DNA of 64,000 bases from Somniosus microcephalus (lineage: Eukaryota), in the NCBI GenBank assembly GCA_052327205.1, contig CM126204.1, positions 352,842,001-352,906,000 of the forward strand, read 5' to 3'. The notes below the pieces were generated by a model that saw only the letters and a list, made by a program, of their open reading frames with translations, did no database searches and was not told the origin of the DNA. Below, piece by piece: positions 26,387-63,721 of the stretch. The translations under genes and the position numbers were made by a program. Position 1 is the first letter of the stretch. Every line of letters begins with the position of its first letter.

Positions 26387-26849
26387 TAGTCACAAGGGTA
26401 GTCACTTGGGTGAAATGTGTTTATTTTAAAAATGCCATCAGTTGGTTATTGTAAATAAAATTTCTGATGGCAACTTCTGCATTTGTGGCATGTGTCATTT
26501 TGCGAATAGGGCTGGAGGTCCTCTAATGTCCAGATGGGAAGGAAATAAATGGCTCCCATGCTTCTGGTAGATCCCTCAGTTGAGGAAGCGCTGAGTGAGG
26601 GTGGCGAGAGGGGTCTCGCAGGAGGTCACACTGGAGATGGGTGTCAGGCTCCAAACTTCCACAGCTGTGGTTATGCTTTCTAAAAGTTCTCCCAGACCTG
26701 AGACAACAAAGTCCTGCCATCTGCAAATGATGACTGATCAAATATCCTTTTTAATGTTGGACCTGCAGCTGATAGTCAGCAAGCCAATAGTCTTCACGCC
26801 AGGTTTCACAGGCGTCATCCCCACCAGGTGCGTTTTATGTGGGACAGCT

Positions 26850-35842: not shown

Positions 35843-38800
35843 TGTTGAGTCTGAGTGTCCCAGATATGCTTATTCTAAATCACTGGACACAGACAACAAG
35901 AATAACTTAAACAGGTCTTTACTAATCGAAGGTCACGGCTGAACTGCTTAGCAAATTACTACACAGAGTTTATATACCGGTGTGGTCACCACCGGTACTA
36001 CAATATACAGTAGCCAAGAGAAAGTAGTCCATCTCTTAAGGTAGTCTCTTAAGGTGGTACAGGTTACATACACCATAATTCCTCCCTTTTTAGCTTAACA
36101 GTGTACATCCCAATTTAAACATAACATGGATAACATATATACAACTTCATGCAAAACTGTTCAAAGATTCAGTCTCTGAGGAGGCCTCCTGATCCGAGTT
36201 GGATAACGCCTTTCAGGGGTCTCTGATTCTCATTGCTGGGGTGACTCATCTAGTTGATCTCTTATGGGTTGGACATCATCAGATACATTGGCGTCTGAGG
36301 TAGATGCTTCAGGTTCACTAACTTCTTCCACTGGTGTCTCTGTCGTAGTCATGGGTTCGACCCTTGTTCTCGATTCTATAAGTTGGTCAGCATGACGTCG
36401 TATTACGTTTTCACCAATATCTACCGTGTACATCAGGGGTCCCTGTCTGGCACGAATTGTTCCAGATTGCCATTTCTCATTCTTATAGTCCCGGGCTAAC
36501 ACTGGTTGTCCTATTTCGAAACTCCGAGTGGTCTTGTTATTTATATGCTGGAACTGTTTGTTTTCGACTTCCCTCCGCACATTTGGTTTTAACAAGTCCA
36601 ACCTGGACCGCAACCTCCTGTTATAGAACATCATGGCAGGGCTTTGATTTGTCACTGCATGAGTGGCGTTTCGATATGCCATTAGGAAATTGTCCACCTT
36701 GTGTTGTAGTGGAATCTGGTCTTCGCTCATGGCCTTTATCGCCTTTTTGAACGTTTGTACAAATCTCTCGGCCAACCCATTTGTAGCCGGATGATATGGG
36801 GCAGAGGTATAATGTTTCACCCCATTCTTCTTCATGAATTTCTGGAATTCTTCTGACATGAACTGCGGTCCATTGTATGAACATATTTGTTCTGGCAATC
36901 CATTTCTTGCGAATATCGTTCTTAGAACTGCGATCGTCTTTTCCGAGGTAGTGGTCGCCATCTTAATCACTTCTGGCCATTTAGAATGTGCGTCTACCGC
37001 AATTAAAAACATGGAGTCCATGAATGGACCTGCGAAGTCAATATGTACATGTTGCCATGGGGTTGAAGGCCATTCCCATGGATGCAGCGGTGCAATTGGA
37101 GGTGCATTTTGAACTTTTTGGCACCCTGAGCAGCTTTTAGTCAGATCCTCTATTTGTTGGTCGATACCTGGCCACCACACATAAGCCCTAGCAAGGCTTT
37201 TCATCTTGACTCCCCCCAGATGACCTTCATGCAGTTCCTTTAGAACTCTCTCTCTTAATTTAGGAGGAATAATCACCCTTGTTCCATACATCAATGTTCC
37301 TTGACAGACGGACAGCTGTTCTCGCCTGGCTGAGAATGCCGGTAACAGTGGTTCACCATGAGCTGGCCATCCCTTCACTGTCAATTCGTAGACCCAAGAC
37401 AGTGTCGGGTCGTTCCTGGTTTCTCTCTCAATACTTGCATTGGTGACTGGTAAACATTCGATGATGGTCAAGTGAAATAACTCAACAGAGTCAACTGTCG
37501 GTGCCTCTTCCGCTGTAGGTAGTGGCAGGCGCGACAGCCCATCAGCATTACCATGTTGCTTTGTACCTTTGAATTCGATATGATATTGATGTGCCCCTAG
37601 GAAAAGAGACCATCTCTGGAGCCTCTGCGCTGTCATCACCGAAACACCCTTCTTAGGGTTAAAAATGGAAACCAACGGCTGGTGGTCTGTCAGCAGCGTA
37701 AACTTTTGCCCTTGCAGGTAATGATTAAATTTTTTTACTCCCCACACAAGGCTGAGAGCCTCCCTATCTATCTGAGCATAGTTGCGCTCAGCGGAGGTCA
37801 ATGATCTGGATGCGAATGCGACTGGTCTTTCCAAGCCATTTGGCAACTTATGTGAGAGCACTGCCCCACTACCATATGGAGAAGCATCACAAGCTAAACG
37901 AATAGGCAGCGTTGGGTTAAAGTGAGCCAACACTTCCTTAGAGGTGATCAATGCCTTGCTTTTGTGAAAGGCCCGCTTACAGTCCTCGCTCCACTTCCAT
38001 GGCACTCCCTTCTGCAAAAGAACGTTCAGCGGGTGTAGCACCGTGGATAAATTTGGCAGAAACTTATGGTAATAGTTAATAACCCTAGGAACGACCTCAA
38101 CTGGGATACATTTTCCGGAGCGGGAGCCTTCACAACAGCTTCGATCTTGTCAGGTGACTTGTGAAGCCCCTCCTGGTCAATGACGTGACCACAGTACGAG
38201 ATTTGCTTCTGAAAGAACTCACATTTCTGGCGATTAACTCGAAGTCCATATTCTTTCAATCTGGTGAGCACCTGTTCCAAATTTGCAAGGTGTTCCTCAT
38301 CATCATCTCCTGTAATCAGAATGTCGTCCAGGTAGCATTGTGTGCCTGGAATTCCCTGTAATACCTGCTCCATGGCCCTTTGCCAAATCGCTGGAGCCGA
38401 TGCCACTCCAAAAACTAGTCTATTATACCGATATAAGCCCTTATGCGTGTTGATCGTGAGATACTGGCGTGACGCTTCATCAACTTCCATCTGTAAGTGC
38501 GCCTGCGCCAGGTCTATCTTGGTGAAGTGTTTCCCGCCAGACAACGAAGCAAAGATATCCTCAATCCGTGGAAGCGGATATTGCACCGTGTGAAGCACCG
38601 GATTAACAGTGATCTTGAAATCGCCACAGATGCGAACCTTCCCCGGTTCCCCCGGCTTGTTACTCGATGAACGCTTCATGACGGGAACAATGGGCGTGGC
38701 CCATTCACTCCAGTCCACCTTTGACAGTACTCCGGAACGTTCTAGTCCTTCCAGCTCAGCTTCCACAGCAGGTCGTATCGCATAAGGTACCGGTCTAGCT

Positions 38801-41008
38801 TTGAAAAATTTTGGGTTTGCATGTTCTTCAACCTTGATGTTTGCCGTAATTCCTTTCAGTGTTCCCAGTCCCTGCTGGAACACCTCTTTAGCATCGTCCA
38901 ATATTCTGGACAGTCGTTTAGGTTTGACATCGTCCTTTTTACCGGAATCTACAGTTAGTGCTTTTAAGGAATGCCAGTCCATATTTATTCTCCTGATCCA
39001 TTCCCGTCCCAGTAGTGGTGGACCTCCCTCAGGTAACACATATAAGTCCATTCCTCGGCTTTCTTTACCCTTGTGGACCACCTTTACCTTTATCTTTCCA
39101 ATGGGGTATACTCTTTGCCCCGTGTATGTTTTCAATACAATCTCCGTATCCCTTAGGGGAATGTGTGGAAATAACCTTTTGTAATCTTGCTTATTCATGA
39201 CCGTCAATGCCGATCCAGTGTCCAATTCCATCTTCACTTGGACTCCTGCTATCTGAAGTGTGACCCAGATAGTTTGGTGGTCTGCTGTGTTACCCACATT
39301 ATGTATTCTTAGACAACCCAGTTCCTTACTGCTGGAGTCTGAATCCATCTTCTGTTCATCCGAACTGTTCTCTGTCACCTTGTTGCACTTTTCCTGCAGT
39401 GACTTTTTGTTGCTGGTCTTCTTTCCTGACCGGCATACTTTATCTATGTGACCGAGCTTGCCACATTTTCTGCATTCCTGATTTTTGAACCAGCACTGGT
39501 TCTGATCGTGCGTTGTCCTTCCGCAACGATAACACTTTACTGCACCCAATGCCATTTGATTGGTGCTGAGTTCCGATGACCTTAGCTGCATTTCCGCGGT
39601 GCCTCTTGCCGCGGCCTCGTGCGATGCTGCAATGGTGACAGCTTTATCAAGCGTAAGGTCCTTTTCCTCTAGCAGTCGCTTTTGTGTTCCTTCTTTTAAT
39701 AATCCACACACGAATTTATCTCTCAGAGCATCTGCTAGTCCTGTACCAAACTGACAGTACTTTGATAGCTTGCGCAGTTCAATTAAGAATTCAGCGTTGC
39801 TTTCCTCTTTCCGCTGCGTTCTTCTGTAAAATTTAAATCGTTCCGCTATCAGCAGCGGCGTGGGGTTTAAATCTTCTTGCAGGATATTAACAATATTCGC
39901 GAAAGTCTGATCCGCCGGTTTATCTGGTGTTACAAGGTGCCTCAATAACCCGTACGTCTTTGCACCCATTGAGTTTAATAAGGTTAGTGCTTTCTTATCA
40001 TCTGGTACCTCATTTGCTGTACAATAAACTTCAATGCGTTCTACATACGTGGCCCAATCTTCAACATCGCTATCAAAAGCAGTGATGTTACCGTGTTTAG
40101 GCATCCTTGAGAGTTTCTTTAAATATTTTATTTTTCCAAAATGGCGGCTTCCCGCGCTTGTCTTCTTCCCCCGCCTACTACAATGGCGGCTTCCCGCGCT
40201 TGTCTTCTTCCCCCGCTGGCTACAATGGCGATGACCACGCTGTTGCCGTTCTCGCCTCCCAGCGGTTCTTAATTTCCCCGACGCTGCTTTTGCTCCCCCG
40301 CGGTTCTTGTGGGCATTAACGCTTCCCTCGTTGCTGCGCCTCTCAGCCCCGATTGCAGCCCGGCCCTTTTCACCAGCTGTGGTCGAGTTCTCCGTGGTTC
40401 TCGTGGCATTAACGCTGCCCTTGTTGCTGCGCCTCTCGGCCCCGATTGCAGCCCGGCCCTTTTCACCGGCTGCGGTCGAGTTCTCCGCCCTTTTTCCTCC
40501 GGTTTCCCTCCCCTTCTCCACTGACAACACGGCCGACTTTCTGCCCGTGTCGCTAGATCGGCTTACCCACCACCGTGGTAGAAGGATGATCACTGCCTGT
40601 CGCTGATGGAGGACTTCGTGGTCAGTAATTTCAACCTGGGTTCTCGATGCCTCCCGTGCGATGCAGTGCTCAGCAGGATGATGAGGGCGGATGCCTCTTC
40701 TCGATGCCCGTTCTGAGGACGAAGCTGCCTTGGATGCAAAACTGCCGCAGGGTAAGATCGGACTCGTCGCCACTGTTGAGTCTGAGTGTCCCAGATATGC
40801 TTATTCTAAATCACTGGACACAGACAACAAGAATAACTTAAACAGGTCTTTACTAATCGAAGGTCAGGGCTGAACTGCTTAGCAAATTACTACACAGAGT
40901 TTATATACCGGTGTGGTCACCACCGGTACTACAATATACAGTAGCCAAGAGAAAGTAGTCCATCTCTTAAGGTAGTCTCTTAAGGTGGTACAGGTGACAT
41001 ACACCACA
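35843..41008 (-). mobile_element. Full-length Gypsy/Ty3 LTR retrotransposon (element A)
   Basis: 235-bp LTRs 35843-36077 and 40774-41008 (3 mismatches by eye); TSD gttct; PBS TGGCGACGAG (tRNA-Ser-like); PPT aaaagggaggaat. Confidence 0.95.
36165..40104 (-). pseudogene. gag-pol of element A (Gag, 2 zinc knuckles, PR, RT, RNase H, IN); one frameshift near 38050 and a late stop at 36230
   Basis: MPKHGN..., [59 protein letters not shown]. Confidence 0.92.
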
Positions 41009-41859
41009 GTTCTGGGAGGGAGGGGCAGGGGTGAGGGCAGACGTGCGGGAGATAGAACTGACACGGTCAACCATGGTAGAGGGGAATCCTTGGTTGAGGA
41101 AAAAGGAAGACATGTCGGAAGCACTGGTATGGAAGGTGGCATCATCAGAGCAGATGCGGCGGAGACGGAGAAACTGGGAGAATGGAATAGAGTCCTTACA
41201 GGAGGCGGGGTGGGAGGAAGTGTAGTCCAGGTAGCTGTGGGAGTCAGTGGGCTTGTACTGAATGTTGGTCAATAACCTATCCCCAGAGATGGAGACGGAG
41301 AAGTCGAGGAAGGAAGGGAAGAGCCGGAGATGGACCATGTGAAGATGAGGGAAGGGTGGAAATTGGAAGCAAAGTGAATTAAATTCTCTTAACTTCTCCT
41401 GCCTTCTATCCTATCACAGACCTTCCCTTTTGTTCTTTTATCCCCTCCCCCATTTCCCAGCCCCTACACTTGCTTAAAAATCTGTTCCATTTCCTGCTTT
41501 TTTCCAGTTCTGACAAAAGGTCATCGACCTGAAACGTTAACTCTGTTTCCCTCTTCACAGAGGCTGCCTGACTTGCTGAGTATCTCCAGCATTTTCTGAT
41601 CCTATCTCTGTCCTGGCTCCAACCAAAGCAACTCCCACTCTTTATGAGCAGTTATACTGCCAATGCCCTGTGAAGTTGATGGGAATGCTGGGAATGCTTG
41701 GTCTGCCGTAGCATTGCAATGACATAATAATTTGTCTTAATCGTGCAATTTAGACCTTTGGAGAGTTTGAAATTTATAGACAGGGAAGATAGGGGAAAGC
41801 GTGGACTATTCGCTAAACTTCCAGCTGTTCCAGGGTTTCAATTACATTTACAACTATAG

Positions 41860-43039: not shown

Positions 43040-43059
43040 GAGTATATCTACAAATGAGC

Positions 43060-45490: not shown

Positions 45491-46979
45491 AACATTTGGT
45501 TTGTAACTCTAGTGCAGGGAGTTGTAAGTTAATTTAAGTGTCAAGAAATTGTGGACTCTCCTACTCTCTAAACATTAACATTTTAACTGCTGGAAGAATT
45601 GTTCATACACCAGTAATCATGCATGCACAGAGCTCCCTCCTGGGCAGATTTGGAGTTTGCCTACATAATAACAGTGACCAAACTTCAAAAATAATTCATT
45701 GCCTGTAAAGTGCTTTGGGACAGCCTGAGCATGTAAAAGGCACTCATGATCACACACAAGACAAGTTCATCCGATAAGCTAGTTCTCCCCTATAAATACA
45801 ACATGCCAGCCACTGGGATGTTCTCCTCATACTAAAAGCCATATTATACTGATTCATTAACCAAAATCATTCTGAAAAATGATCATTACAGTTCTTACTG
45901 AAAATCTGAAGCAATAATAGAAAATGCTGGATATACTCAACAGGTCAGGCACAAATCAATTGAGGTTTCAGGTATAAACCCTTCCTCAGAACTAAGTTGG
46001 ACCAAACTTAGTTGGTTTGTGCTCACTGACCTGCATTGACTCTCGGTCTGGCAATGCCTCAATTTTAAAAATTCTCATCCTTTTCATCCAGTCTTCAAAG
46101 CCCTCCATGGCCTCCTGAGACCCTACAAGATCTCTGCGCTCCTCCAATTCTGGCCTCTTGTGCAAACCCGATTTTAATCGCTCCACCATTGATTGCCGTG
46201 CCTTCAGCTGCCCAGGATCTCAAAGCTCTGGAATTCCCTCCCTAAACCTCTCCACCTCTCCTTCTTTAAGATGCTCCTTAACGCCTACCACTTTGGTCAA
46301 GCATTTTGTCACCTGTCCTAATGTCTCCTTTCTTGGCTTGGTGTCATTTTGTGTCTGATTACACTGATTATGCCTTGAGACGTTTTACTATGTTAAAGGC
46401 ACTATATAAATCCAAGTTGTTGTTATTATGCTGGATTAAAGCACCAAACTAAGAGCATTATACTTTGTTTCTATAAGGCTTTGGTATGTCGACACGGTGC
46501 CCAGTTTTCAGCCCCACATCTGCTGAAGCATATTGATGCTATAGTGAGAGTGCAAAGGAGGGCAACAACTCTTACCTAAACTTAGACCTCTGCGTTACAA
46601 GGATAGGCTTAGAGAGTTAGGGTTAGTCACTTGGGAGAAAGATAGGCTTAGAGAGTTAGGGTTAGTCACTTGGGAGAAAGATAGGCTTAGAGGAGAAATG
46701 ATTGGGCTTTTTAAAAGATAAATACATTGGATAGATTTAGAGAATATATTTAAAATAGATTTTTAATAGCGGGTATGTCTATAAAATCTAGAAGGAAGGA
46801 GTCAATTAAATGTCGGGAAATGATTCTTCCTTGGAGAGTTGTCACCTGGAAGAGGCTACTGAAGAATGTATTAAGTATGGGTATGCTACAGTCCAGTTAA
46901 GAAAGAATGAGGGGGCCACGTGAGCATATTGGGGATGTGTGGGTTGATTAAGCTCGCCTAGTGTGATCTCGTATTCTAG

Positions 46980-47314: not shown

Positions 47315-50300
47315 TGTAAAGTCTGTGGGTTATATGGTGAATTAATACACAGACTACAAGAGTAACTTTAACAGGACTTTACTATTCGAAGGTCAGGGCG
47401 AATCTGCCCAATAAATCCTTACACAGCACTTATATACCGGTGTGGTCACCACCGGTATTACAGTATACAGCAGCCAAGATAAAGTAGTGCAACACCTAAA
47501 ATAGTTCTCTTAAAGGTGGATGGTTACATACAATAGTTCTCTTAAAGGTAGAACGGTTACATACACTACAATCCTCCCTTTTTAGCTTACAACATACTTA
47601 TTCCCCATTAAACATAACATCATAACATCTATCCAACTTCATTTAAAAACAGTTCACAGATGTAGTCTCTGCGGAAAACAGTTCACAGATGTAGTCTCTG
47701 CGGAAAACAGTTCACAGATTCAGTCTCTGCGGAAAACAGTTCACAGATTCAGTCTCTGTGGAGGCGCCTCCTGTGCTTCTTGACTCGGTCCGGACAATGC
47801 CTCGGTGGTGTAGCAGTTTCCTGTGGTATAGTCGGTTCACGTTGCTGGAGTGACTCATCCAATAGTCCTTCACTGGACTTAACAGCTTGAACTTCCGTCA
47901 CTTCTGAACCAGCATTGTTGACTTCTAAAAGCTTGAGTACCTTGGGAAGTTTTTCTACTTCCAAACTGATTTGGCTCCGTTCGGAGGGACCACGTGCGTG
48001 ATCTGGTAGAGGTGATAATGGTTCAGATGGGACATCTTCTTCTGTTTCGTCTTTTCCTTTCCTGCTTCTTGGAGACTCTCTGTGCTCCGCTGCCAGCCGC
48101 ATGCACAGTTCCTCCTCCTCTTTCTCCTGTTGCCTTAGCAGTGCCACTATCTCCCGGTGTTTCTTAGACTTTTTGTGATTCTTCAGGGTTTGTGCACTTC
48201 GGAAGATTTCCCCACAAGCTGGGCAGAACAGGTCCTCGTTATATTCGGTGTCGTTCAACAGGACATGGTAATAATCGGTGTCGTCCTGAGCTAGGCCAGC
48301 GAGAGGGTCTTTTATTTCCTCCATGCCCAGCTGGACGTTAGCCAGCTTTTGTTCCAAGTCCCGACATCTCTCCTGAAGAGACTTCTTCATGTGTTCAGCT
48401 TCCTCCAGCTTTTTCTGGGCTTCCTGCAAGTCTTTTATTAATGACCTCATTCGTGATTTCAATGCTTCAACTTCCTTCGGAGATTGATTGATCGTACTAT
48501 TCAATCCCTCTACTGGAGCAGCTGTTTCAGCATTTTGTTGTTCGACATTGACGTGAGTCAGCGTACGTTTGGCATCCAAGGGTTGCTCTGCTGCCATCTT
48601 CTCAGTCTGTGTTGCAACCTCAGCTATTTCAATAACTTTTGAGAGCTCCGAACCCCTTTCCTTTGAAGATTGAAGCTCGTGTTCAAATTGTTCCCATTTC
48701 AGAGTCTTGTCCCTCAGCATATGAAGGAGTTGGCTGACCGTTAACTCTTCTGACCTCATCCATTTCCCAGTAGCTGCAGGGCTGTTTATAACCTTGCCCT
48801 GGGGCTCCTTTGCTGTTTCTACTTCGCCATCATCCGCAGCCTCCACCATTCGAATTTCCACAAATGAATCGTCCGGTGGTGCTGCACCCAACTTCAGTAG
48901 GAGCTCGGAATTCATGGCGACCAACTCAGCCTTTTCTGCCTGCAATCTGCTAACAAGCGCCTTCAGTTGCTGAACATCTTGCTCCACCAGATTAGAGCAC
49001 GCACCTTCAGAAACCGAATCAGCTTTGATTCGTTTGGCCTCCTTGCGCAGACGGTTTGTGTGCTCCTGCTCCCTTTTCTCCCTCAGCTGTTTCTGTTGTC
49101 TTTCCAGATTCTCCCACTCTGTGTCAAAGAACGTTTTCATTGCTTTTATCTCTTGCTCGAGACGGCAACTCAATTGTTCTAATTGCTGTTGTAATTTGAA
49201 ATGGAGTTGAGTTCGAGCCCGGTGTTCCTCAGACTTGTGCATGTCTGTAAACTGGACAGACTCAGAATTCTCTGCCAAACTATGTTGTTGTTGTTCAGTG
49301 GAATTCTGTTCTGAAACTTTGTTCTCCTTTGAAGCATCAGTATTTATGCACTCCTTCGTTTTTCCAACCTTAGTCAGCAAGTCCATTTTAGACTTGTCTT
49401 TCGCACCTGGGCTGGTCTTGTCGTCATCCGTTTCAGAGTCTGAGCTGATTGTCTTCACCGAGTTCTCACTCGTTATTGCTTTTAGGTAGTGCCATTCCAT
49501 ATTTATTTCCCTGATCCACTCCCGTCCCAGAAGTGGTGGACCTCCCTCAGGTAGTACATATAAGTCCATTCCTTGGTGTTCTTTGCCCCTGTCTCTCACC
49601 TTGACTTGTATCTTTCCCATGGGGTATACTTTATGCCCCGTGTATGTCTGCAATACGATCTTGGTATCTCTCAAGGGTATATGTGAGAATAGCCGGTTGT
49701 AATCCCTTCGATTTATGACTGATAGGGCTGATCCTGTGTCCAATTCCATTTTCACTTGGACTCCGGCTACTTTTAGTGTGACCCAGATAGTTTGTAGGTT
49801 AGCTTCCTTACTCACATTGTGAATTCTCAGACTACCCAGTTCCTGGCCGTTCGGGTCTGAATGCGAATTCTGTTCATCTGAACTCTTCTCAGCCACCTTG
49901 TGTACCTTGCTGTCCTTTTCCTGAGGTGACTTTTTTCTGTTGTTGGTCTTCTTTCCTGACCGGCATACTTTAGCTATGTGACCAAGCTTGCCACATTTTC
50001 TACATTCCTGGTTTTTAAACCAGCATTGGTTCTGGTCGTGTGTTGTCTTCCCACAACGATAACATTTTGTTGTACCCGAAGTCATTTGATCCACGCTGAG
50101 TACCGCTGCCTTCAGCTGCATTTCCGCAGTGCCTCTCACGGCTGCTTCGTGTGATGCTGCAATAAGGACAGCCTTGTCAAGTGTAAGATCGTTCTCTTCG
50201 AGCAGTCGCTTTTGTGTTCCTTCCTTCGACAACCCGCACACGAACTTATCTCTCAATGCCTCTGTCAGATTTTCCCCAAACTGGCAGTATTTCGCTAGTC

Positions 50301-51887
50301 TACGCAGTTCGACCAAGTATTCCGCGTTGCTTTCCTCTTTCCGTTGCGTTCTCGCATAAAATTTGAATCATTCCGCCAACATCAGCGGTGTGGGGTTCAA
50401 ATGATCCTTCAGGACAGCAACAATATCAGCGAAAGTCTGATCCGCCGGTTTAGCTGGTGATAGAAGATGCTTCAATAGCCCGTATGTCTTCGCCCCCATT
50501 GCGTTTAATAAGGTGAGAGCTTTATCATCATCTGCTATTTTATTGGCCTCACAATATATCTCGATGCGTTCTACGTACGTGGCCCAATCTTCCACTTCGG
50601 AATCGAAGTTGTTGATGTTACCATGCTTAGGCATCTTCACTATCTTTTTGAGAAACCACAACGAATTTGTTCGTTACTTTTTTTTTCCAAAAATGGCGGT
50701 TTCCCGCGCTTCTGTCTTCTTCCCCCCTACTGGCGGCTTCCCGCATTTCTTCCCCTGGCGGGAGGGGTAAGCTTTCCTTCGGGCGACGACCGCTGGCTTT
50801 CGGAGTTCGCAGCCTGCGCGCCGGCTTCAGTGCGTTCCTTGTTCCCTTTTCTCGGCCGGCAACCGGCGCTGGGGACAACCCGTTGGCGGCGAACAGTTCC
50901 AGCCGCTGGGCGGAATCTCGCTCGGTCTCCCTCGCTCGGTCCCGTTCCCCCTTCACTCGGCTCTGTCTCTCCCTCAGCGGCTTCCAATCGCGCCTCCCAG
51001 CCCTCTCGCAGTCCGGTCCTTTCCTCCCCCGGCTGCGGCTGAGTTCTCCGCGGTTTTATTTATTTTTATATCTTCCCGCGCCTTACAATCCCGGTCGCAG
51101 CGCCTCGTGGCCTCGGTAGCTGCCCGGCCTTTTTCGCCGGTCGCGGTCTAGCTGTCTCACGACGCTGTTGCGTCTCCCAGCCCGCTTGTAGCCCGGTCTC
51201 TCACACCGGCTGCGTTCCCGCTTGTAGCCCGGTCTCTCACACCGGCTGCGTTCCCGCTTGTACCGCGGCTTCCGTGCCCTACGCTGCCCCAGTCTCAGCG
51301 CCTCTGGGCCCGACTTCTGTCCGGCTCCTTTCCCCCGACCGTGGTCGAGTTCACCGCCCTTATCCTCCGTTTCTTTTTATTTTCCCCCTACTCACAGTCA
51401 ACGTGGCCGACTTGCTTCTCTTGGCTGATCGGCTCACTCACCGCCGTGGCAGAAGGGACAATAACAGCCTGTTGCTGATGGAAGGCTTCGTGTCTGAATC
51501 CTTCCTTCTTCCTTGCTCTGCAGACTCGAGTCTTCTCTCAGCAGAACGACGAGGGCGGGTGCCTCTTCTCGACGCTCGTTAACTGCTTCAGGTGTGTCGC
51601 TGCCGCAGGGTAAGATCGAACCCGTCGCCACTGTAAAGTCTGTGGGTTATATGGTGAATTAATACACAGACTACAAGAGTAACTTTAACAGGACTTTACT
51701 ATTCGAAGGTCAGGGCGAATCTGCCCAATAAATCCTTACACAGCACTTATATACCGGTGTGGTCACCACCGGTATTACAGTATACAGCAGCCAAGATAAA
51801 GTAGTGCAACACCTAAAATAGTTCTCTTAAAGGTGGACGGTTACATACAATAGTTCTCTTAAAGGTAGAACGGTTACATACACTACA
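47315..51887 (-). mobile_element. Non-autonomous Gypsy LTR element B carrying host-gene-like cargo
   Basis: 256-bp LTRs 47315-47570 and 51632-51887 (1 mismatch by eye); TSD tgagg; PBS TGGCGACGGG; PPT aaaaagggaggat; no RT/IN motifs. Confidence 0.95.
47749..50634 (-). CDS. Chimeric Gag-protease-cargo polyprotein (STK10/SLK-like coiled coil + optineurin-like segment with LIR + DNAJC21-like zinc finger + integrase C-terminal tail); single CGA>TGA stop at 50368-50370
   Basis: ORFs 50368..50661 and 47749..50316 are in the same frame; Gag/PR homologous to element A; cargo motifs [88 protein letters not shown]. Confidence 0.85.
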
Positions 51888-52064
51888 TGAGGGACATGTT
51901 AAAGTGTTACACATATAGAACCCAAGAATCATACAGCACAGAAGAAGGCCATCCAAGTGGATAAGGCAAGCGCTGTGTCCAGACACTCAAACAGCTCCAT
52001 ATATTGAGCATGGTGCTCATTGCACAAGCCTATTCAGCCATGTGGTCCTAGATTACTCTCTCTG

Positions 52065-52248
52065 GGGGTCATTTTGACTTTGTGCAATAGTGTAAAACAG
52101 GTGATAGCGGCTCGCCAGCCCGTATTACATCTCTCTCGATTTTTATTTCCATTGAACTTAATCGAAATAAAACTCGTGAGAGCTGTTAGACGGGCTACCA
52201 ATTCACTATCACCTGTTTTGCCCTATCGCACAAAGTCAAAATGACTCC
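52065..52248. mobile_element. Small fold-back palindromic MITE
   Basis: gtcattttgactttgtgc..aaaacaggtgatag pairs with ctatcacctgtttt..gcacaaagtcaaaatgac; imperfect palindrome over ~185 bp. Confidence 0.75.
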
Positions 52249-52524
52249 CCCCCCCCACTCCCCATGTGCTTAGCTGGCCAGTTTCAATCTCACAGTTGAT
52301 TGCGTCTATCACAAATTTCGGAACAGAGTATACCAAAGTTGATGGAATGGATGCATCTACTATAAAAACATAGAATGGAATATGTTTTTTTAATTACAAA
52401 CCCAAAGAAATAACGCGGTAGAATCACAAATATGATCTAGTAGCTGATTAGCAAGGGAATATAAACACACAGGAGCGTTTCTGATTGGCATCATGAAATT
52501 GTATAGTGTGGCTGTCAGAAAAAG

Positions 52525-52940: not shown

Positions 52941-55900
52941 TGTAGTGTGTGTACCCGTCTACCTTTAAGAGAACTATTGTATGTAACCGTTCACCTTTAA
53001 GAGAATTATTTTAGGTGTGGCACTACTTTGTTTGGCTTCTGTATACTGTAATACCGACGGTGACCACACCAGTATATAAGTGTTGTGTCAGGAATTATTG
53101 GGCAGATTCGCCCTGACCTTCGAATAGTAAAGTCCTGTTTTAAGTTACTCTTGGAGTCTGTGTATTAATTAACTAAACAACCCACAGACTTTACAGTGGC
53201 GACGAGTCCGATCGTACCCTGTGGCAACAATACGTCCGAAGCAGTTAACGAGCGTCGAGAAGAGGCAACCGCCCTCGTCGTTCTGCTGGGAAAAAACTCG
53301 AGGCTGCAGAACTAGAAAGGAGGAAGAATTTAGAGACAAAGACTTCCATCAGCAACAGGCACTGACTGTCCCTTCTGCCACGGTGAGGAGTGAGCCGATC
53401 AGCACGAGAAGCAAGGCGGCCACGGTGACTGTGAGTAAGGGAAAGTAAAAAGAATAACCGGAGGATAAGGGCGGTGCACTCGACCACGGTCGAGGGGGAA
53501 AGGAGCCGGACAGAAGTCGGGCCCAGAGGCGCTGAGACTGGGGCAGCGTGGAGCAAGGAAGCCGCGGTACAGACAGGCTGGGGACGCAACGGCGTTGTGA
53601 GACAGCTAGACCGCGACCGGCGAAAAAGGCCGGGCAGCGACCGAAGCCACGAAGCGCTGCGACCGAGAGCGTAGGCGCGGGAAGATATAAAAACTCAGCC
53701 GCAGCCGGGGAGGGAAGCACCGGACTGCGAGAGGGCTGGGAGGCGCGATTGGGAGCCGAGTGAGCGGGAGAGGCAGAGCCGACCAAGGGAGACTGAGCGA
53801 GAGCCAGTCCAGCGGCTGAAACTGTTCGCCGTCAACGGGGTGTACCCAGCGCCGGTAGAGCCGAGCGAGCGGGAGAGAAACAGAGCCCGAGCAAGGGGAA
53901 CTGAGTGAGAGCCAGCCCAGCGGCTGAAACTGTTCGCCGTCAATGGGGTGTACCCAGCGCCGGTTGCCCTGCCGAGAAAAGGGAAAGCACTGAAGCCGAC
54001 GCGCAGGCTGTGAACCTGAAAGCCAGCGGCCGTCGCCCGTGGGGGAAGTGTACCCCTCCCGCCAGGGGAAGGAACGCGGGAAGCCGCCATTAGGCGGAGA
54101 AGAAGACAGAAGCGGGGAACCGCCATTGAAGTGGGCGGGGAGAGAAGATAAGCGCGGGAAACCGCCATTTTCGCGGGAACCGCCATCTTGGGAAAAGAAA
54201 AAAAAATTTTAAAGAAATAATTCGTGGTGTTATCAGGAAGAGAGGAAGATGCCTAAGCGTGGTAACATCAACAATTTTAATTCCGAGGTAGAAGACTGGG
54301 CCACGTATGTGGAACGCATTGAGATCTATTGTGAGGCCAATAAAATAGAAGAAGATGACAAAGCTATAACCTTGCTAAACTCGATGGGCGCGAAGACATG
54401 TGAGCTCTTGAAGCATCTACTAGCACCAGCTAAACCGGCGGATCAGACTTTCGATGATATTGTGACTGTTCTGAAGGATCACTTGAACCCCACACCGTTG
54501 ATGTTGGCGGAACGATTCAAATTCTATGCGAGAACGCAAAGGAACGATGAAAGCAACGCAGAATACTTGGTCGAACTGCGTAGACTAGCGAAACACTGCC
54601 AGTTTGGAGGGAATCTGACAGAGGCATTGCGAGACAAGTTCGTGTGCGGATTGGCAAAGGAAGGAACGCAAAAGCGACTACTCGAAGAGAACGACCTTAC
54701 ACTTGACAGGGCTGTCCTTATTGCAGCATCGCACGAAGCCGCAGCGAAGGGAACTGCGGAAATGCAGCTAAAGACAGCGGCACTCAGTGTGGATCAAATT
54801 ACCTCGACAACAACAAAATGCTATCGTTGTGGGAAGACAACACACGACCAGAACCAATGCTGGTTTAAGAACCAGGAATGTAGGAAATGTGGCAAACTGG
54901 GTCACATAGCTAAGGTATGCCGGTCAGGGAAGAAGACCAACAACCAAAGGACCAACAACCAAAGGAAGCCATCACAGGAAAAGTACAACAAGGTACACAA
55001 GGTGGCTGAGAAGAGTTCAGACGAACAGAATTCGGACTCAGACCCAAACGGCCAGGAGCTGGGTAGTCTGAGAATTCACAATGTGAGTAAGGAAGCTGAC
55101 CTACAAACTATCTGGGTCATGCTAAAAATAGCTGGAGTCCAAGTGAAAATGGAGTTGGACACTGGATCAGCTCTATCAGTCATAAATCGAAGGGATTACC
55201 ACCAGCTATTCTCACATATACCCTTAAGGGATACCAAGTTCGTATTGCAGACATACACGGGGCATAAAGTATGCCCCATGGGAAAGATAAGAGTCAAGGT
55301 GAGAGATAGGGGTAAAGAACACCCAAGAATGAACTTATACGTACTACCTGAGGGAGGACCACCACTTCTAGGATGGGAGTGGATCAAGAAAATAGACATG
55401 GAATGGCCCTATCTAAAAGCCATAACGAGTGAGGACTCGGTGCAGACAATCAGCTCAGATTCTGAATCGGATGACGATAAGACCAACCCAAATGTGAAAG
55501 ACAAGGCTAAAATGGACTTGCCGACTAAGGTTGGAAAAACGAAGGCATGCCGAAAGGCTTATGCTTCAGAGAAGAACAAAGTTTCAGAACAGAGCTCCAC
55601 CGAACAACGACAACATAGTTTGACAGAGAATTCTGAGTCTGTTCAGTTTAAGGACATATCCATGACGGAAGAACACCGAGCTCAGACTCAACTTTATTTC
55701 AAATCACGACAACAATTAGAACAATTGAGTTACCGTCTCGTACAAGAGATGAAAACAATGAAAAAGTTCTATGACACCGAATGGGAGAATCTGGAAAGAC
55801 AACAGAAGCAGCTAGCTCAAGCAGAGAGCGACCATAGAGCCATCGTGACCAATCACCGATCACATCTCCCTTATGATGTTCAGGAGTTAGAATATTTACA

Positions 55901-57818
55901 GAAAGAAGCAAATGAAGAGGAATCTTCAGGAAGCCAGGATTTTATTCCAGTTCTTCTCTACGACTCCTTACAAGCAGAGTTTGAGAAGTTGAAGGAACAG
56001 GCCCAGGCTACAATCCTGGAGGGGGTTAACTCAGCAACCTCCGAAAAGCTAGTTTCAGTGGAAGCATATGAGCAACTAAAGGTTGAACATGAACAAGAAG
56101 TCCAAAGGCTGCAGGAAATTCTTAATGAGCTCAAGGCCAAGACAGACTCATCGGTAGAAGTTCCATCCATAGATGAGAAATTAGAGGTGAAAGACATGGC
56201 AGAACATGAAAGTCAAGATGTCCAAGAACTCATAAAAATATTGAAGGAAACCCAAGACAAATATGAGGCGGCAATGACCGAGGTTCAACAACTTGAAGAA
56301 CAGATTCAACTGGGAATTCTTTCAGTGAAAGAAAAGGCAACTGTAAGAAACACAGAGACTGTAAGAATGGCCCCTGAACATGAGCTAGAGAGCATCAAGG
56401 CGCAACTTCTCCGAGCGCTTAAAGCCAAAGTACAAGAGGAAAAAAAGGTGAAAGCATTGGAGGAAAAGGTGGATGAAATAGAGAAGACTCTGATCCACAG
56501 GGTCCCCGTGGAAGAGTTAACGGTCAGCCAACTCCTTCATATGCTGAGAGACAAGACTCTGCAAGGGGAACCATTTGAACACGAGCTTCAATCTTCAAAG
56601 GGAAGGGGTTCGGAGCTCTCAAAAGTTTGGGGAATAGTTGAGGTTGCAACACAGATTTTACGGGGCTGCCGAAAGTACGCTGAATCACGTCAATGGGAAC
56701 TACAGAATGTTGAAACAGCTGCTCCAATAGAAGGATTGAATAGCCCGATCAATCAATCCCCGATGGAAGGGGAAGTATTGGAATCACAAATGAGGTCATT
56801 AGTGAAGGACTGGCAGGAAACCCAGGAAGAGCGGGATGAATATGAACGCATGAAGAAGTCTCTTCAGGAAAGATGTCTAGGGAGGGAACAACAGTCAGCT
56901 AACGTCCAGTTGGGTAAGGAAGAAGTAGCAGGCCCTCTCGCTAGACTAGCTCAAGACGACACCGAATATTACCATGACCTGTTGAGTGACACGGAATATT
57001 ACGAGGACTTGGTCTGCCCAGCTTGTGATGAAAACTCCCAAAGTGCAGAAATCAGGATGAAGCACTTAAAGTCTAAGGAACATAGGGAGATGGTGGCGCT
57101 ACAGCTGGCAGCTGATAAGGGAGCCCCGAGAGTCTCCAAGAAGCAGAAAAGAAAAAGACGAAGCAGAAGACGATAACCATCTAAATCATTATCACTTCTA
57201 TCAGATCATGCACGTGGGCCCTATGAAGGAGGCCAAATCAGTTGGAAAGTAGGAAAAATTACCAAGGCAGTCCAGCTGTTTGTAAAAGTCAGCACTGCTG
57301 GTTCAGCAGGACGGAAGTTCAAGCTGTTAAGCCAAGGGAAAGACTATTGGATGAGTCACGCTAGAAATGTGAACCGGCTACACCACAGAGATGTTGTTCG
57401 GACCGAGTTAAGACCAGAGACTGAATCTGTGAACTGTTCCCGCAGAGACTGAATCTGTGAACTGTTTCCCGCAGAGACTATATCTGTGAATTGTTTTACA
57501 TGAAGTTGATTATATGTTATGTTTAATGGGGAATAAGTATGTTGTAAGCTAAAAAGGGAGGATTGTAGTGTATGTACCCGTCTACCTTTAAGAGAACTAT
57601 TGTATGTAACCGTTCACCTTTAAGAGAATTATTTTAGGTGTGGCACTACTTTGTTTGGCTTCTGTATACTGTAATACCGACAGTGACCACACCAGTATAT
57701 AAGTGTTGTGTCAGGAATTATTGGGCAGATTCGCCCTGACCTTCGAATAGTAAAGTCCTGTTTTAAGTTACTCTTGGAGTCTGTGTATTAATTAACTAAA
57801 CAACCCACAGACTTTACA
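52941..57818 (+). mobile_element. Non-autonomous Gypsy LTR element C carrying host-gene-like cargo
   Basis: 255-bp LTRs 52941-53195 and 57564-57818 (2 mismatches by eye); TSD ctgtg/ctatg; PBS TGGCGACGAG at 53197; PPT aaaaagggaggat; no RT/IN motifs. Confidence 0.95.
54249..57176 (+). CDS. Intact 975-aa chimeric Gag-protease-cargo polyprotein (STK10/SLK-like + ANKRD24/RAI14-like + optineurin-like + DNAJC21-like segments)
   Basis: Uninterrupted ORF; Gag, 2 CCHC knuckles, LDTGS protease, then [73 protein letters not shown]-x12-H-x5-H. Confidence 0.88.
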   Translation: MPKRGNINNFNSEVEDWATYVERIEIYCEANKIEEDDKAITLLNSMGAKTCELLKHLLAPAKPADQTFDDIVTVLKDHLNPTPLMLAERFKFYARTQRNDESNAEYLVELRRLAKHCQFGGNLTEALRDKFVCGLAKEGTQKRLLEENDLTLDRAVLIAASHEAAAKGTAEMQLKTAALSVDQITSTTTKCYRCGKTTHDQNQCWFKNQECRKCGKLGHIAKVCRSGKKTNNQRTNNQRKPSQEKYNKVHKVAEKSSDEQNSDSDPNGQELGSLRIHNVSKEADLQTIWVMLKIAGVQVKMELDTGSALSVINRRDYHQLFSHIPLRDTKFVLQTYTGHKVCPMGKIRVKVRDRGKEHPRMNLYVLPEGGPPLLGWEWIKKIDMEWPYLKAITSEDSVQTISSDSESDDDKTNPNVKDKAKMDLPTKVGKTKACRKAYASEKNKVSEQSSTEQRQHSLTENSESVQFKDISMTEEHRAQTQLYFKSRQQLEQLSYRLVQEMKTMKKFYDTEWENLERQQKQLAQAESDHRAIVTNHRSHLPYDVQELEYLQKEANEEESSGSQDFIPVLLYDSLQAEFEKLKEQAQATILEGVNSATSEKLVSVEAYEQLKVEHEQEVQRLQEILNELKAKTDSSVEVPSIDEKLEVKDMAEHESQDVQELIKILKETQDKYEAAMTEVQQLEEQIQLGILSVKEKATVRNTETVRMAPEHELESIKAQLLRALKAKVQEEKKVKALEEKVDEIEKTLIHRVPVEELTVSQLLHMLRDKTLQGEPFEHELQSSKGRGSELSKVWGIVEVATQILRGCRKYAESRQWELQNVETAAPIEGLNSPINQSPMEGEVLESQMRSLVKDWQETQEERDEYERMKKSLQERCLGREQQSANVQLGKEEVAGPLARLAQDDTEYYHDLLSDTEYYEDLVCPACDENSQSAEIRMKHLKSKEHREMVALQLAADKGAPRVSKKQKRKRRSRRR

Positions 57819-59329: not shown

Positions 59330-60838
59330 TATTCATTGATGGGATGTGGGCGTCGCTGGCTAGGCCTGCATTTAATGCCCATCCCTAATTGCCCTTGAGA
59401 AGATGGTGGTGAGCCGCCTTCTTGAACCGCTGCAGTCCATATAGTGCAGGTACACCCACAATGCTGTTAGGAAGGGAGTTCCAGGATTTTGGCCCAGCGA
59501 CAGTGAAGGAACGGCGATACAGGTCCAAGTCAGGATGGTGTGTGGCTTGGAGGGGGACTTGTAGGTGGTGATGTTCCCATGCGTCTGCTGCCCTTGTCCT
59601 TCTAAGTGGTAGAGGTCGCGGGTTTGGAAGGTGCTGTTGAAGGAGCTTTGGCGAGTTGCTGCAGTGCATCTTGTAGATGGTACACACTGCAGCCACAGTG
59701 CGCCGATGGTGGAGGGAGTGAATGTTGAAGGTGGTGGATGGAGTGCCAATCAAGCGGGCTGCTTTATCCTGAATGGTGTCGAGCTTCTTGCGTGTTGTTG
59801 GAGCTGCACTCATCCAGGCAAGTGGAGAGTATTCCATCACACTCCTGACTTGTGCCTTGTAGATGGTGGAAAGGCTTTGGGGAGTCAGGAGGTGAGACAC
59901 TCACCGCAGAATTCCCAGCCTCTGGCCTGCTCTTGTAGCTACAGTATTTATATGGCTGGTCCAGTTCAGTTTCTGGTCAATGGTAACCCCCAGGATGTTG
60001 ATAGTGGGGGATTCAGCAATGGTAATGCCATTGAATGTCAAGGGGAGATGGTTAGAGTCTCGCTTGTTGGAGATGGTCATTGCCTGGCACTTGTGTGGTG
60101 CGAATGTTACTTGCCACTTGCCAGCCCAAGTCTGAATGTTGTCCAGGCCTTGCTGCATATGGACACGGACTGCGTCAGTATCTGATGAGTCTCGAATGGT
60201 GCTGAACAGTGTGCAATCATCAGCGAACATCCCCACTTCTGACCTTATGATGGAGGGAAGGTCATTGATGAAACAGCTGAAGATGGTTGGGCCTAGGACA
60301 CTGCCCTGAGGAACTCCTGCAGTGATGTCATGTGATTGAGATGAATGACCTCCAACAACCACAGCCAACTTCCTTTGTGCTAGGTATGATTCCAACCAAT
60401 GGAGAGTTTTCCCCTTGATTCCCATTGACTTCAGTTTTGCTAGGGCTCCTTGATGCCACACTCGATCAAATGCTGCCTTGATGTCAAGGGCAGTCACTCT
60501 CACCTCACCTCTTGAGTTCAGCTCTTTTGTCCATGTTTGGACCAAGGCTGTAATGAGGTCAGGAGCTGAGTGGCCCTGGCGGAACCCAAACTGGGCGTCA
60601 GTTAGCAGGCTATTGCTGAGTAAGTGCCGCTTGATAGCACTGTCGACGACACCTTCCATCACTTTGCTGATGATTGAGAGTAGACTGATGGGACAGTAAT
60701 TGGCCGGGTCGGATTTGTCCTGCTTTTTGTAGACAGGACATACTTGGGCAATTTTCCACATTGCCGGGTAGATGCCAGTGTTGTAGCTGTACCGGAACAG
60801 CTTGGCTAGGGGCGCAGCTAGTTCTGGAGCACAAGTCT
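59330..60838 (-). mobile_element. L2/CR1-superfamily LINE RT fragment
   Basis: ORFs 59901..60761 (ALDIKAAFDRVWH, VPQGSVLGP, MFADD) and 59385..59900. Confidence 0.9.
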
Positions 60839-61639
60839 TAAGGAATCAAGGCCAAGTGTGATCTTCCAATGAGGTAGGGTTAGAGGACGGGGGAATTGGA
60901 GCAGGGTGTGCAGATGTAATCAGTCCCCATTTTAAAGTCACATATTTTGTCTTTATCTTTACATGATACTTTTATTTACTATTACTATTTATAATTAAAA
61001 TAGAAAAATGCACAGTAATTTGAGAAGTAAAGCTGTATGGGTCACAAGAGTTTCTCTGCAGTACAGAATGAAGAGCTGGGAGATGCAAGACTCAAGTGTT
61101 ACAGTGTCACCACCAGCACGAAGGTGTTGTTGCAGCGTGACAAGTTTACGTTGGGAGTTTCAATTGTAAATGTGGATGTGGAGATTTATAATGGAAAGCA
61201 CTGACAGGAAGTATGCACGGATGTAAAATTATAACAAAAAACATCTGCACATACTTCCTAGCTGCACCACTTGACTTCCTGTCTTCATGTTTTAGAATCA
61301 TAGAATAGTACAACACTTTTTGTCAGCTTTTCCCATTCTTAAAATCCAATGGGGGAAACATTTGTCCCCTTAGCTCCTCCCATTAGCACCAGTAGATGGC
61401 ACTAATGGGGTGCTAGAGCAGTATCGCCCAGGCGTGGTGAATCCAGCGCCGCACGTCAAATCCGGCGCCCCCATAGCGCCGCCGGTAAGAGGAATCGCCA
61501 GGTATTTCATGACGTCAGTGAGTGCGCAATGGTCACTGACCGCCCAATTTGCAAAATTGATTCTTGCCACTTACCTCACCGCCTGGAGTAAACACCGACA
61601 GGGAGAGCTGGCGTGCAGCACCAGGAAGCCGGCTCCAAG

Positions 61640-63721
61640 AGTAGTGTATGTACCTTTAAGACAGAACTACTTTTACAGCTCCTGTATACTGTAGTACCGG
61701 CAGTGACCACACCTGTATATAAGCCTTGCGCATGCCTCTGTACCCCCAGTCTTGAGACTACCCTCCACCAGTAAATACCTGTTGATTGTTAAGTTACAGC
61801 ATCCGTGTGGTTATTGAAAAACATCATACTCTCAGAATCACGGATCTAACAGTGGCGATGAGTGTCAATTCGAATCTACCTGCAACTCTGCATTTCCCTT
61901 CGAGGAGTCACTCCGGGAGGGCGGTGGAAGCAAGTCGAGGCCAGAAACACGTGCGTCGACCACGAGCAACCGCCCAGTCGTCCGGCAGAGAGTGAACATC
62001 GCAGGGGAGGCTGTGGAGAGCCGGGCTTGGTTCCCCAGCCACGACGATCAGCAAGAGACTGACGACAGGTACAGCGCAGATCCTTCCCGGACAGCGGTGG
62101 CTGGAGCCGACCGACGGCAGAGAGAAAGCCGAGCAGCGTCGACGGGGTAAGACAGAGGGTGAAGCGCACAGGGCGCAGCCGGGGGTTGAAAACCGAGCAG
62201 CGTCGAGAGAAAAAAAAAATGGAGAGAGAGAGGGTAAAGCAACAGCCGGGTTCAGGACCGAGCGGCGGGAACGGGAAAGGCACACAAAAAAAAGAACGCG
62301 CAGAGCACATCCAGGGCTCAAGGGCTGAACGGTGTCCGCGGGGAGAAGAAGGGAGAGCGCGGGAGATGCCATTGAGCTGCGGAGAAGAAGGAAGAGCGCG
62401 GGAGATGCCATTTTTAGAAGCCGCAGCGGAGAAGAAGGGCGAGCGCGGGAAGGAAGGGGAAGCGCGGGAGATGCCATTTTTGACAGTTAAATCACACCCA
62501 GGGATGCCGAAGAGTGGCAGTATCTCTACGTTCGACAATGAAGTCGAAGATTGGGCAACATATGTGGAACGTATTGAGGTGTACTGCAGGGCGAATGAAG
62601 TGCCAGATGCTAGGAAAGCACTGGTTTTGTTAAATTCCATGGGTGCAAAAACTTTTGGGTTACTGCGGAACCTAATAACCCCAGAGAAGCCAGTGAACAA
62701 GAATTTCGAAAGCATAGTAGAAATCCTACAGGACCACTTAAACGCCATACCGCTGCTGATAGCAGAACGATTTAAGTTCCATAAAAGGAACCAACACAAA
62801 GACGAAAGCAATGCTGAGTACCTAACGGAACTACGCAAGCTATCGAAACACTGCCAGTTTGGAGCGGGACTAGCAGATACGTTAAGGGGCAAGTTTGTGT
62901 ATGGGCTGCAAAGTGAAGGAACCCAGAAACGGCTTCTATCAGAAAGGGATCTTACGCTGGACAAGGCTTTCAGTATGGCAGTATCACACGAAGCAGCCGC
63001 AAGGGGCGCTGCAGAGATACAACGGAGACCGCAAGAATATGGCACCAATTAAATGTCCTATGGAACAGGGAAGTGCTATCGCTGCGACAGAACAACACAT
63101 GACCAGAAGGATTGTTGGTTCAAGGACCAAGTGTGCAGACTGTGTGGAAAAGCAGGACACATAGCAAGAGTCTGCAGGTCTGGGAAGAAAACCAACAGTA
63201 AGAAATCTCCACAGGAGAAGTACAAAAAGGTACACAAGGTGATGGACAGTAGTTCAGATGAACAGAAAAGTGACGCAGACTCCGGAAACAAGGTTGTCTG
63301 AAACTACATAAGGTAACCAAAATGGAGGATCACCAGACTATCTGGGTTACACTCAAGATAGACGGAGTCCAAGTGAAAATGGAATTGGACACAGGATCAG
63401 CCCTAACAGTCATAAACCAAAGGGACTACAAGCGGCTATTTTCACATATACCCTTGAAAGCTACAGAGATTGAATATTAGGGGTACTACTAATCTAAAAG
63501 GGGAGGAATTGTAGTGTATGTACCTTTAAGACAGAACTACTTTTACAGCTCCTGTATACTGTAGTACCGGCAGTGACCACACCTGTATATAAGCCTTGCG
63601 CATGCCTCTGTACCCCCAGTCTTGAGACTACCCTCCACCAGTAAATACCTGTTGATTGTTAAGTTACAGCATCCGTGTGGTTATTGAAAAACATCATACT
63701 CTCAGAATCACGGATCTAACA
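61640..63721 (+). mobile_element. Gag-only non-autonomous Gypsy LTR element D
   Basis: 212-bp LTRs 61640-61851 and 63510-63721 (differ only at the first base by eye); TSD ccaag; PBS TGGCGATGAG; PPT aaaaggggaggaat. Confidence 0.93.
62504..63480 (+). pseudogene. gag plus truncated protease of element D
   Basis: MPKSGSISTFD..., stop at 63050, two CCHC knuckles, frameshift near 63300, ELDTGS, then truncation just before the PPT. Confidence 0.85.

Follow-up and report, generated by a model that had tools for sequence, protein, structure and literature searches.

Element C is a non-autonomous long terminal repeat (LTR) retrotransposon in a 64,000-nucleotide stretch of the genome of the shark Somniosus microcephalus (here, the window), and it carries pieces of the host genes STK10, ANKRD24, OPTN, and DNAJC21. 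Its sequence makes it very probable that a single Ty3/Gypsy lineage captured host RNAs one after another, with back-spliced circles among the templates, and that C is its most recent product. We infer that at least two of the captured templates, from STK10 and ANKRD24, were circular RNAs (circRNAs). An annotation made from the letters of the window (the original prediction) had proposed a cassette swap between C and its sister element B by reverse transcriptase (RT) template switching. It missed the main point, which is that the ANKRD24 template was back-spliced.

The ANKRD24 segment of element C

Pairwise alignment of B and C bore out the predicted limits of the swap. The match runs to window position 55813 (...LERQQKQL) and resumes at 56511 (EELTVSQLL). 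The intervening ANKRD24/RAI14-like sequence, put at about 700 bp, is 697 bp of ANKRD24 (55814-56510), where B has 333 bp of STK10 and OPTN (48752-49084). As had been proposed, this B-specific segment is the rest of the STK10 piece plus part of OPTN. It encodes an FVEI motif (48853-48864), which we take to be the LC3-interacting region (LIR) of OPTN. The motif is absent from C, and the spread of C was unharmed by its loss.

The best protein matches of the C-specific piece were shark proteins named ankycorbin or ANKRD24-like (79%), and its coelacanth and tetrapod matches all carry the name ANKRD24. (The piece is named by these best matches, without a tree.) Intron-holding donor genes were located by querying with uncaptured gene parts, and splice sites were read from the loci; the exon labels K (ANKRD24), S (STK10), and O (OPTN) are our own. 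The ANKRD24 host gene is at G000:C13:62.86 Mb and is 95% identical to the C piece. The piece is not colinear with it: donor residues 1054-1080 precede residues 490-705. The cargo of C and the corresponding features of B are as follows.

55427..55813 (+), STK10 cargo of C, 5' part: S2 nt 192-416, a 417-nt internal deletion, S4, and S5 nt 1-59
55807..55813 (+), 5' switch point AGCAGCT, 7 nt, where STK10 exon S5 matches the end of K3 of ANKRD24
55814..55817 (+), final 4 nt of K3 of ANKRD24 (165 nt), normally spliced to K4
55818..55883 (+), ANKRD24 exon K4, 66 nt, entire, second-last among the mapped exons
55883..55884 (+), back-splice junction: K4, ending at its GT donor, meets the upstream K2 (1512 nt), starting at its AG acceptor
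55884..56517 (+), ANKRD24 exon K2 nt 1-643, 95% identical to the gene, with a 9-nt in-frame deletion in the window copy
56511..56517 (+), 3' switch point GAAGAGT, 7 nt, common to ANKRD24 K2 and OPTN exon O4
56511..56923 (+), OPTN cargo of C: O4 from nt 44 onward through O7, without introns
56924..57155 (+), DNAJC21 zinc-finger cargo of C, borders approximate
57156..57355 (+), STK10 cargo of C, 3' part: S1 nt 96 to S2 nt 159, out of frame in C
47315..51887 (-), element B, non-autonomous, of the sister subfamily of C, with the cargo order Gag-PR-STK10-OPTN-DNAJC21-STK10 (PR, protease)
48752..49084 (-), B-specific 333 bp: end of the STK10 S5 piece, then OPTN O2 nt 9 to O4
49019-49027 (-), STK10-OPTN microhomology CAAAGCTGA, 9 nt, within the B-specific segment

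When aligned to a doubled K2+K3+K4 circle, positions 55802-56517 of C matched in one piece (94.9% over 725 columns), whereas they matched the linear exon order in two. This circle is 1743 nt long, a multiple of three, and stop-free. The K4-K2 join was without base gain or loss in 42 of 43 C loci (here and below, the copies examined are top search matches), and the block had the same ends in 13/13 of the most donor-like C loci, although in 3 the 5' junction letter match failed on a substitution. Over 80 nt at the K4-K2 join, the window copy differs from the gene at 7 positions and early copies differ at fewer. An earlier form of C with a longer ANKRD24 piece or the full circle was not found. 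The uncaptured half of K2 had a single close match genome-wide, which is the gene, and otherwise matched two distant paralogues.

We considered a swap at the DNA level, by gene conversion or break repair from the gene, or a nested transposon. It would suit the facts that 643 nt of the piece are in one big exon and that an intron of ANKRD24 harbors a C copy. However, the piece spans both the back-join and the K3-K4 forward splice, from which a 6.7-kb intron is gone, and its identity to host coding exons is 95-98%. It lacks its own repeat ends and target-site duplication, and it replaces 333 bp rather than being inserted. The C copy in the intron is complete, lies antisense, and has a separate target-site duplication. 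We find this explanation hardly credible, and the two splice junctions refute a DNA-level swap, barring a processed ANKRD24 copy in this exon order outside the elements; none was present among the 13 non-donor loci of the 40 best matches.

The intronic copy lies within the captured block, in the K3-K4 intron (G000:C13:62867070-62871961), is flanked by GTGAG duplications, and has LTRs identical at 251/255 positions. It was the first-branching of seven C rows in our tree. It must post-date the ANKRD24 capture, and its inverted exon copies could pair with ANKRD24 pre-mRNA.

Both ends of the swap have microhomology, measured against the genomic donor genes. At the 3' end, the predicted gaagag was present but extended to 7 nt (GAAGAGT), and the donor protein there reads PLEE, not PVEE. 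The 7-nt AGCAGCT at the 5' end had been overlooked. In random joins of B cargo to ANKRD24 exons, at least 7 shared nt occurred in 0.08% of 300,000 draws (0.14% if in frame). The donor thus shares microhomology with the element and the C-specific piece is not a nested transposon, the two points on which the original prediction had left itself open to refutation. By translation, the frame is kept at both ends, as had been noted; the 5' junction is open in 29/30 C loci and the 3' junction in 28/30. Template switching by RT, as originally proposed, fits the spliced donors, the 7 nt at both ends, and the derived state of C.

The description of the cassette replacement as ongoing did not hold. Cargo order and end points were identical in all 43 C loci, and therefore the swap was a single event followed by amplification, with no running exchange between B and C. 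B and C are 81-91% identical. In the most donor-like C copies, the ANKRD24 piece is 98% identical to the gene, but the value for the flanking cargo is only 76-94%, and these copies are only 79-90% like B. These values indicate that the ANKRD24 piece joined a C-line backbone that had already diverged from B.

The probable STK10 circle and the order of captures

STK10 pieces occur at both cargo ends of B and C. In the gene, the 3' part lies upstream of the 5' part, and it is a relic of a captured circle. The STK10 host gene is at one locus, C8:167.19 Mb, with its introns. When the uncaptured middle of STK10 was used as the query, there were 98 matches, mostly intron-less, which led to family E. 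One E copy (L090:5099-6357) aligned to a doubled five-exon STK10 circle over 1259 nt, gap-free and at 99.0% identity. The circle is 1245 nt, a multiple of three, and stop-free, and the insert is one full turn plus 14 nt. Its path goes in at S2 nt 146, across the S5-S1 back-join, and out at S2 nt 159, and the join is exactly S5 donor to S1 acceptor. The pieces in B and C are permuted because the founder captured this full turn. The STK10 exon borders agree with a transcript contig of another organism.

The part of the element that the cargo displaced can be seen from element A, a related element with full pol.

35843..41012 (-), element A, full-length Ty3/Gypsy relative, frameshifted, with gag, PR, RT, RNase H, and integrase

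In Pfam searches, its two open reading frames (ORFs) had the PR-RT-RNase H-integrase order of Ty3/Gypsy. No env was found in A, which has no further ORF of at least 150 amino acids (aa). The E copy tracks A through protease to nt 2119 and rejoins it at nt 4761, at the end of integrase, with pol gone. At its entry, TATTGGA (7 nt) is common with the post-protease sequence of A, and at its exit, GATGAG (6 nt) is common with the integrase end. One STK10 word therefore resembles both places in A exactly, over 7 and 6 nt. With these two switches, a linear mRNA would give a 14-nt insert, whereas a circle would give a full-turn insert.

Microhomology at seven measured switch points was 7, 6, 4, 9, 7, 7, and 7 nt (both DNAJC21 junctions and a later entry deletion are outside this set). 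In contrast, the STK10 back-join has just the 2-nt AG in common. RT working on an ordinary linear mRNA might have jumped backward at CAG/G look-alikes of exon ends and so mimicked a back-splice. AG/G is common at exon junctions, and internal jumps do occur in this lineage, such as a 417-nt deletion at GAGG. The ANKRD24 back-join shares CAGG (4 nt) and, taken alone, could be such a jump; this is one point against circular templates. However, splice-exact joins make up only 1/8584 of the possible backward joins among the mapped ANKRD24 exons (at least 4 shared nt) and 6/53,744 among the mapped STK10 exons (at least 2 shared nt). Backward jumps would also be needed in two genes. For E, four switches would be required, and chance would have to place its entry and exit on the same 14 nt. 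We consider this explanation very improbable.

The intermediates between E and C survive. Among 30 STK10 back-join loci, 5 were full E and 25 had the 417-nt deletion. In family G (27 loci), the STK10 back-join has given way to OPTN, which starts at O2 nt 9 and runs through the last base of O7, with microhomologies of 9 and 7 nt; the O2 nt 9 entry is retained in 25/27 loci. Family H has DNAJC21 added, plus the same shortened entry as B and C. The cargo that B and C share is STK10, OPTN, and the DNAJC21 zinc finger. The captured STK10, OPTN, and ANKRD24 exons abut without introns.

We built a tree from 566 STK10-derived columns and 42 rows (5 to 7 picked per family plus the gene, which was the root). 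Over these columns, identity to the STK10 gene was 98-99% for E, 97-98% for deleted E, 96-98% for G, 96-97% for H, 92% for B, and 81-83% for C. The branches (B,C,F,H) and B+C were starred, and topologies that placed C next to the donor or outside B+G+H were rejected (p-AU <1e-46). These results indicate that the B state is ancestral and the C state derived. The phylogeny gave the capture order E, deleted E, addition of OPTN, addition of DNAJC21, and then B and C.

A short variant, F (G000:C13:~62889395-62893121), has STK10 joined directly to OPTN O4, more deletions, and LTRs that are 99% identical. We rejected F as the source of C, since C was nearer B in 8/8 segments and a C+F grouping had a p-AU of 0.0045. 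The gag-PR region of F is 71-73% identical to that of C, as distant as A, and its backbone is possibly recombinant. WAPL as additional cargo was not supported; its three matches were all at one gene locus.

A related organism's STK10 transcript differs at 16 sites, has no element letters, and sides with E against the assembled gene at three. By this comparison, the first capture seems to be more recent than the split from that organism, or close to it in time. The cargo of C is now 18% diverged since the first capture. The STK10 S3-S4 intron apparently starts with GC, not GT (L084:3266-3682).

The intron-holding OPTN gene is at C17:85.87 Mb. Small indels in its assembled O4 and O5 (G000:C17:85884655-85885539), relative to all element copies, break the frame, from either an assembly error or a damaged allele. 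The DNAJC21 exons that were captured were not found in the assembly: two upstream exons were, followed by 100 kb with two 500-N gaps in which there was no further match. A search of the ZUO1-like family for this donor matched a different locus.

We propose the following mechanism. Inside the particle, RT would switch from the element RNA to a host RNA packaged with it, at a common word of 4-9 nt, and return at another. An A-like element would first have traded pol for a full turn plus 14 nt of the 1245-nt STK10 circle, with RT entering and leaving the circle at the same spot, to give family E. The 417-nt deletion would come next, and OPTN exons O2-O7 would then displace the STK10 back-splice junction (G), before DNAJC21 was acquired (H). 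After the B and C lines diverged, RT in the C line would have crossed onto the 1743-nt ANKRD24 circle, passed through its back-splice junction, and gone back into OPTN. Each product would keep its LTRs, primer-binding site (PBS), polypurine tract (PPT), and Gag-PR and would be multiplied by RT and integrase supplied in trans.

Reading frame, copy number, and transcription

By translation, 9 of 10 non-splice junctions are in frame; the exception is the distal DNAJC21-STK10 junction in its native reading. In-frame junctions are weakened as pure proof of selection because about half of the shared 7-mers are in frame anyway (154/314, 38/75, 65/162, and 21/32). Even so, 9 of 10 is about a 1% outcome given that background. 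This gives moderate support for selection on an open frame, and one candidate reason for it is that an open frame spares the RNA from the decay that follows early stops. The frame from protease to OPTN is open in 22/30 C loci. Simple dN/dS values for cargo against donors were 0.19-0.47 in seven comparisons, and 0.15-0.20 for Gag-PR. (Two OPTN O5-O7 rows were dropped for the broken frame of the assembled donor, as were two O4 rows that were too short.) The DNAJC21-STK10 junction (window 57100-57176; 47752-48100 in B) is out of native frame in C, most B top matches, and some H copies, and the tail frame is regained in the window B and several H copies. The zinc finger is reached in 22/30 B loci and the tail is read through in 6/30.

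A broader possibility is that this lineage prefers circRNAs, with all captures, OPTN included, coming from stop-free circles of 3n length, and that selection keeps a Gag-protease-coiled-coil polyprotein. We hold this only tentatively and think it rather doubtful. The OPTN capture enters one exon at an offset of 8 nt and stops at the final bases of another, and the exon block would be 909 nt, or 3n, if a 1-nt excess in assembled O4 is set aside. The OPTN ends, within about 10 nt of the exon-block borders, are a suggestive hint of a circle.

Copy candidates numbered at least 1640 and at least 2209 for C, at least 1701 for B, and at least 1148 for the STK10 back-join. For B and C, 40/40 scored matches, on many contigs, were at 98-100% identity. 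The LTR identities described below suggest that both have spread recently.

We also mapped two raw RNA runs, whose source animals may differ from the assembled one, onto the STK10 locus. They had 70 (14 starts) and 60 (23 starts) back-join reads, and 131 and 107 reads with the 417-nt deletion joint. Element letters were on 151/157 and 183/195 reads at site 2017 and on 179/185 and 159/160 at site 6785; more than 90% of reads on shared STK10 exons carry them. Exon S3 had almost no depth in either run. In the strand-biased run, the early STK10-bearing families were transcribed in sense.

Several of our results, besides the shared CAGG, weigh against circular templates or against parts of the proposed history. 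The element letters on most reads and the near absence of S3 mean that the back-join reads are best read as transcripts of early element families, not of a host circle. The OPTN and DNAJC21 pieces are colinear, without a back-splice junction in any locus examined (for OPTN, it is absent from 27/27 G loci). With the DNAJC21 donor exons unlocated, its two junctions had to be left out of the microhomology set. A is only 84% identical to E and hence is not its exact parent. Top search matches are not a random sample of copies. Finally, the cargo shows weak constraint at the amino acid level (fixed 61 S/113 N versus singleton 49 S/134 N; p = 0.11), and we do not claim strong protein-level selection on it despite the dN/dS values.

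The RNA result bears on a further explanation, in which linear RNAs with repeated exon blocks, from trans-splicing or tandem exon duplication in the donor, were captured by RT in the same way with no circle. Such RNAs yield the same junction as a circle and would allow the full turn plus 14 nt of E, and our reads did not demonstrate a host circle. However, each exon is single in the donor loci, so that duplications would have had to arise and vanish in two genes, and no element examined has exons from outside the two exon blocks. Back-splicing is probably also the commoner source of such junctions. We judge linear repeats improbable and prefer capture from back-spliced circles.

Comparison of the window against itself gave four related LTR elements (A, B, C, and D). 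The remaining features of C are as follows.

52941..57818 (+), element C, entire non-autonomous LTR retrotransposon, 5-bp target-site duplication CTGTG/CTATG
52941..53195 (+), 5' LTR, identical to the 3' LTR at 253/255
53197 onward (+), PBS-like TGGCGACGAG, following the 5' LTR
54249..57176 (+), single ORF, 975 aa: Gag (two zinc knuckles)-protease-STK10-ANKRD24-OPTN-DNAJC21
57548-57563 (+), PPT, upstream of the 3' LTR
57564-57818 (+), 3' LTR, paired with the 5' LTR

B and C belong to the non-autonomous Ty3/Gypsy LTR retrotransposons. In both, the two LTRs are almost identical (255/256 in B), and a PBS-like site, a PPT, and 5-bp target-site duplications (TGAGG/TGAGG in B) are present. Zinc knuckles and protease are encoded by a single long ORF in each; no RT, RNase H, or integrase is encoded by the ORF of C, and that of B likewise lacks RT and integrase. 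The twin zinc knuckles and TGGCGACGAG-type PBS may link them to the Mag clade of Ty3/Gypsy.

Element D (61641-63721, +) is a related short element with a stop in gag and a cut protease. Its 211-bp LTRs are identical to each other, its target-site duplication is CCAAG, and no host cargo was found in it. Elsewhere in the window, a 2.5-kb tandem array (43040-45521) of approximately 20-bp units in higher-order repeats produces long repetitive open frames. Inspection of translations revealed another, apparently unrelated Gypsy-type pol (26738-29812) and LINE reverse transcriptase fragments (459-1328, 3384-5274, and 59385-60845). Imperfect palindromes are at 52064-52249 (81% self-complementary) and 32733-32786 (89%).

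Comparison with known systems

In retroviral oncogene transduction, host coding pieces are fused into the ORF of a defective retroelement that is moved by a helper. We know of no back-splice junction in that system or in maize Bs1. As cited in the text of PMC5131818, Bs1 is likewise a defective retroelement whose ORF has acquired host coding pieces. The shark elements are like both in this respect but unlike them in their templates, since the donors of those elements were linear mRNA.

LTR-mediated retroposition is closer. The text of Tan et al. 2016 (PMC5131818) describes mRNA pieces that replace part of the internal ORF between LTRs, with a median switch-point microsimilarity of 6 bp, chimeras of up to four genes, further non-autonomous rounds, and sense transcription. 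The shark elements have the same marks, as far as that text sets them out: LTR-flanked ORF replacement, intron loss, microsimilarity beyond chance, further non-autonomous rounds, and, for the early STK10-bearing families, sense transcription. The main text of that paper has no mention of circular, back-spliced, or scrambled templates or of exon order. Unlike the cases in it, the shark templates are back-spliced, the captures are serial with surviving intermediates, and the chimera is a high-copy family.

The text of a shark genome preprint (10.1101/2024.09.09.611499) reports retrocopies of OPTN, PLEKHA1, LRAT, and WAPAL that have LINEs or LTRs on their flanks, and treats them as retrogenes. 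Its intron-less OPTN copy near LTR/LINE sequence is like ours; its main text leaves STK10, ANKRD24, DNAJC21, and circular RNA unmentioned. The available part of a second shark preprint (10.1101/2025.06.08.657570) has none of the four cargo gene names. We found no report of this system in the openly accessible literature, with subscription papers largely outside the search.

The nearest parallel is the mouse circRFWD2 pseudogenes (Dong et al. 2016, PMC4897178), which have a reversed exon-exon junction, no poly(A), and 33-42 copies. These copies occur with LTR sequence, which the figure legends give as MMERVK10C-int; their mechanism was called mysterious, and the text has no switch-point analysis. 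The shark cargo is like them in its splice-exact noncolinear junctions (K4-K2 in C and S5-S1 in E), its many copies, its LTR association, and its lack of a poly(A) tail; it ends by microhomology into the 3' part of the element, PPT, and LTR. Unlike circRFWD2, it resolves both switch points and includes one capture that is a full turn with a 14-nt terminal overlap. It also has two circles in one lineage, cargo in frame with Gag-PR, and more than 1000 candidates per family.

The two switch points and 14-nt overlap of E are the footprint expected of an LTR RT that goes once around a circle. Repeat capture from a second gene makes the mechanism by which circRNAs are written back testable, which PMC4897178 left open. 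If the templates were circles, then circRNAs can reach germ line retrotransposon particles. The elements also preserve a rare ordered series of exon-shuffling steps. As a practical matter, thousands of them can be expected to mimic back-splice reads and inflate gene counts and expression of STK10, OPTN, DNAJC21, and ANKRD24 in this shark. Should 3n circles prove to be sampled preferentially, this genome would be a dated, high-copy fossil record of germ line circRNAs, and stop-free circles would act as a permanent reservoir of protein modules made by exon shuffling.

LTR-mediated retroposition and, in mouse, circRNA-derived copies were already known. What is new here is the base-level mechanism, the probable repeat capture of circRNA, the in-frame serial stacking, the full-turn founder, and the preserved ladder of intermediates.

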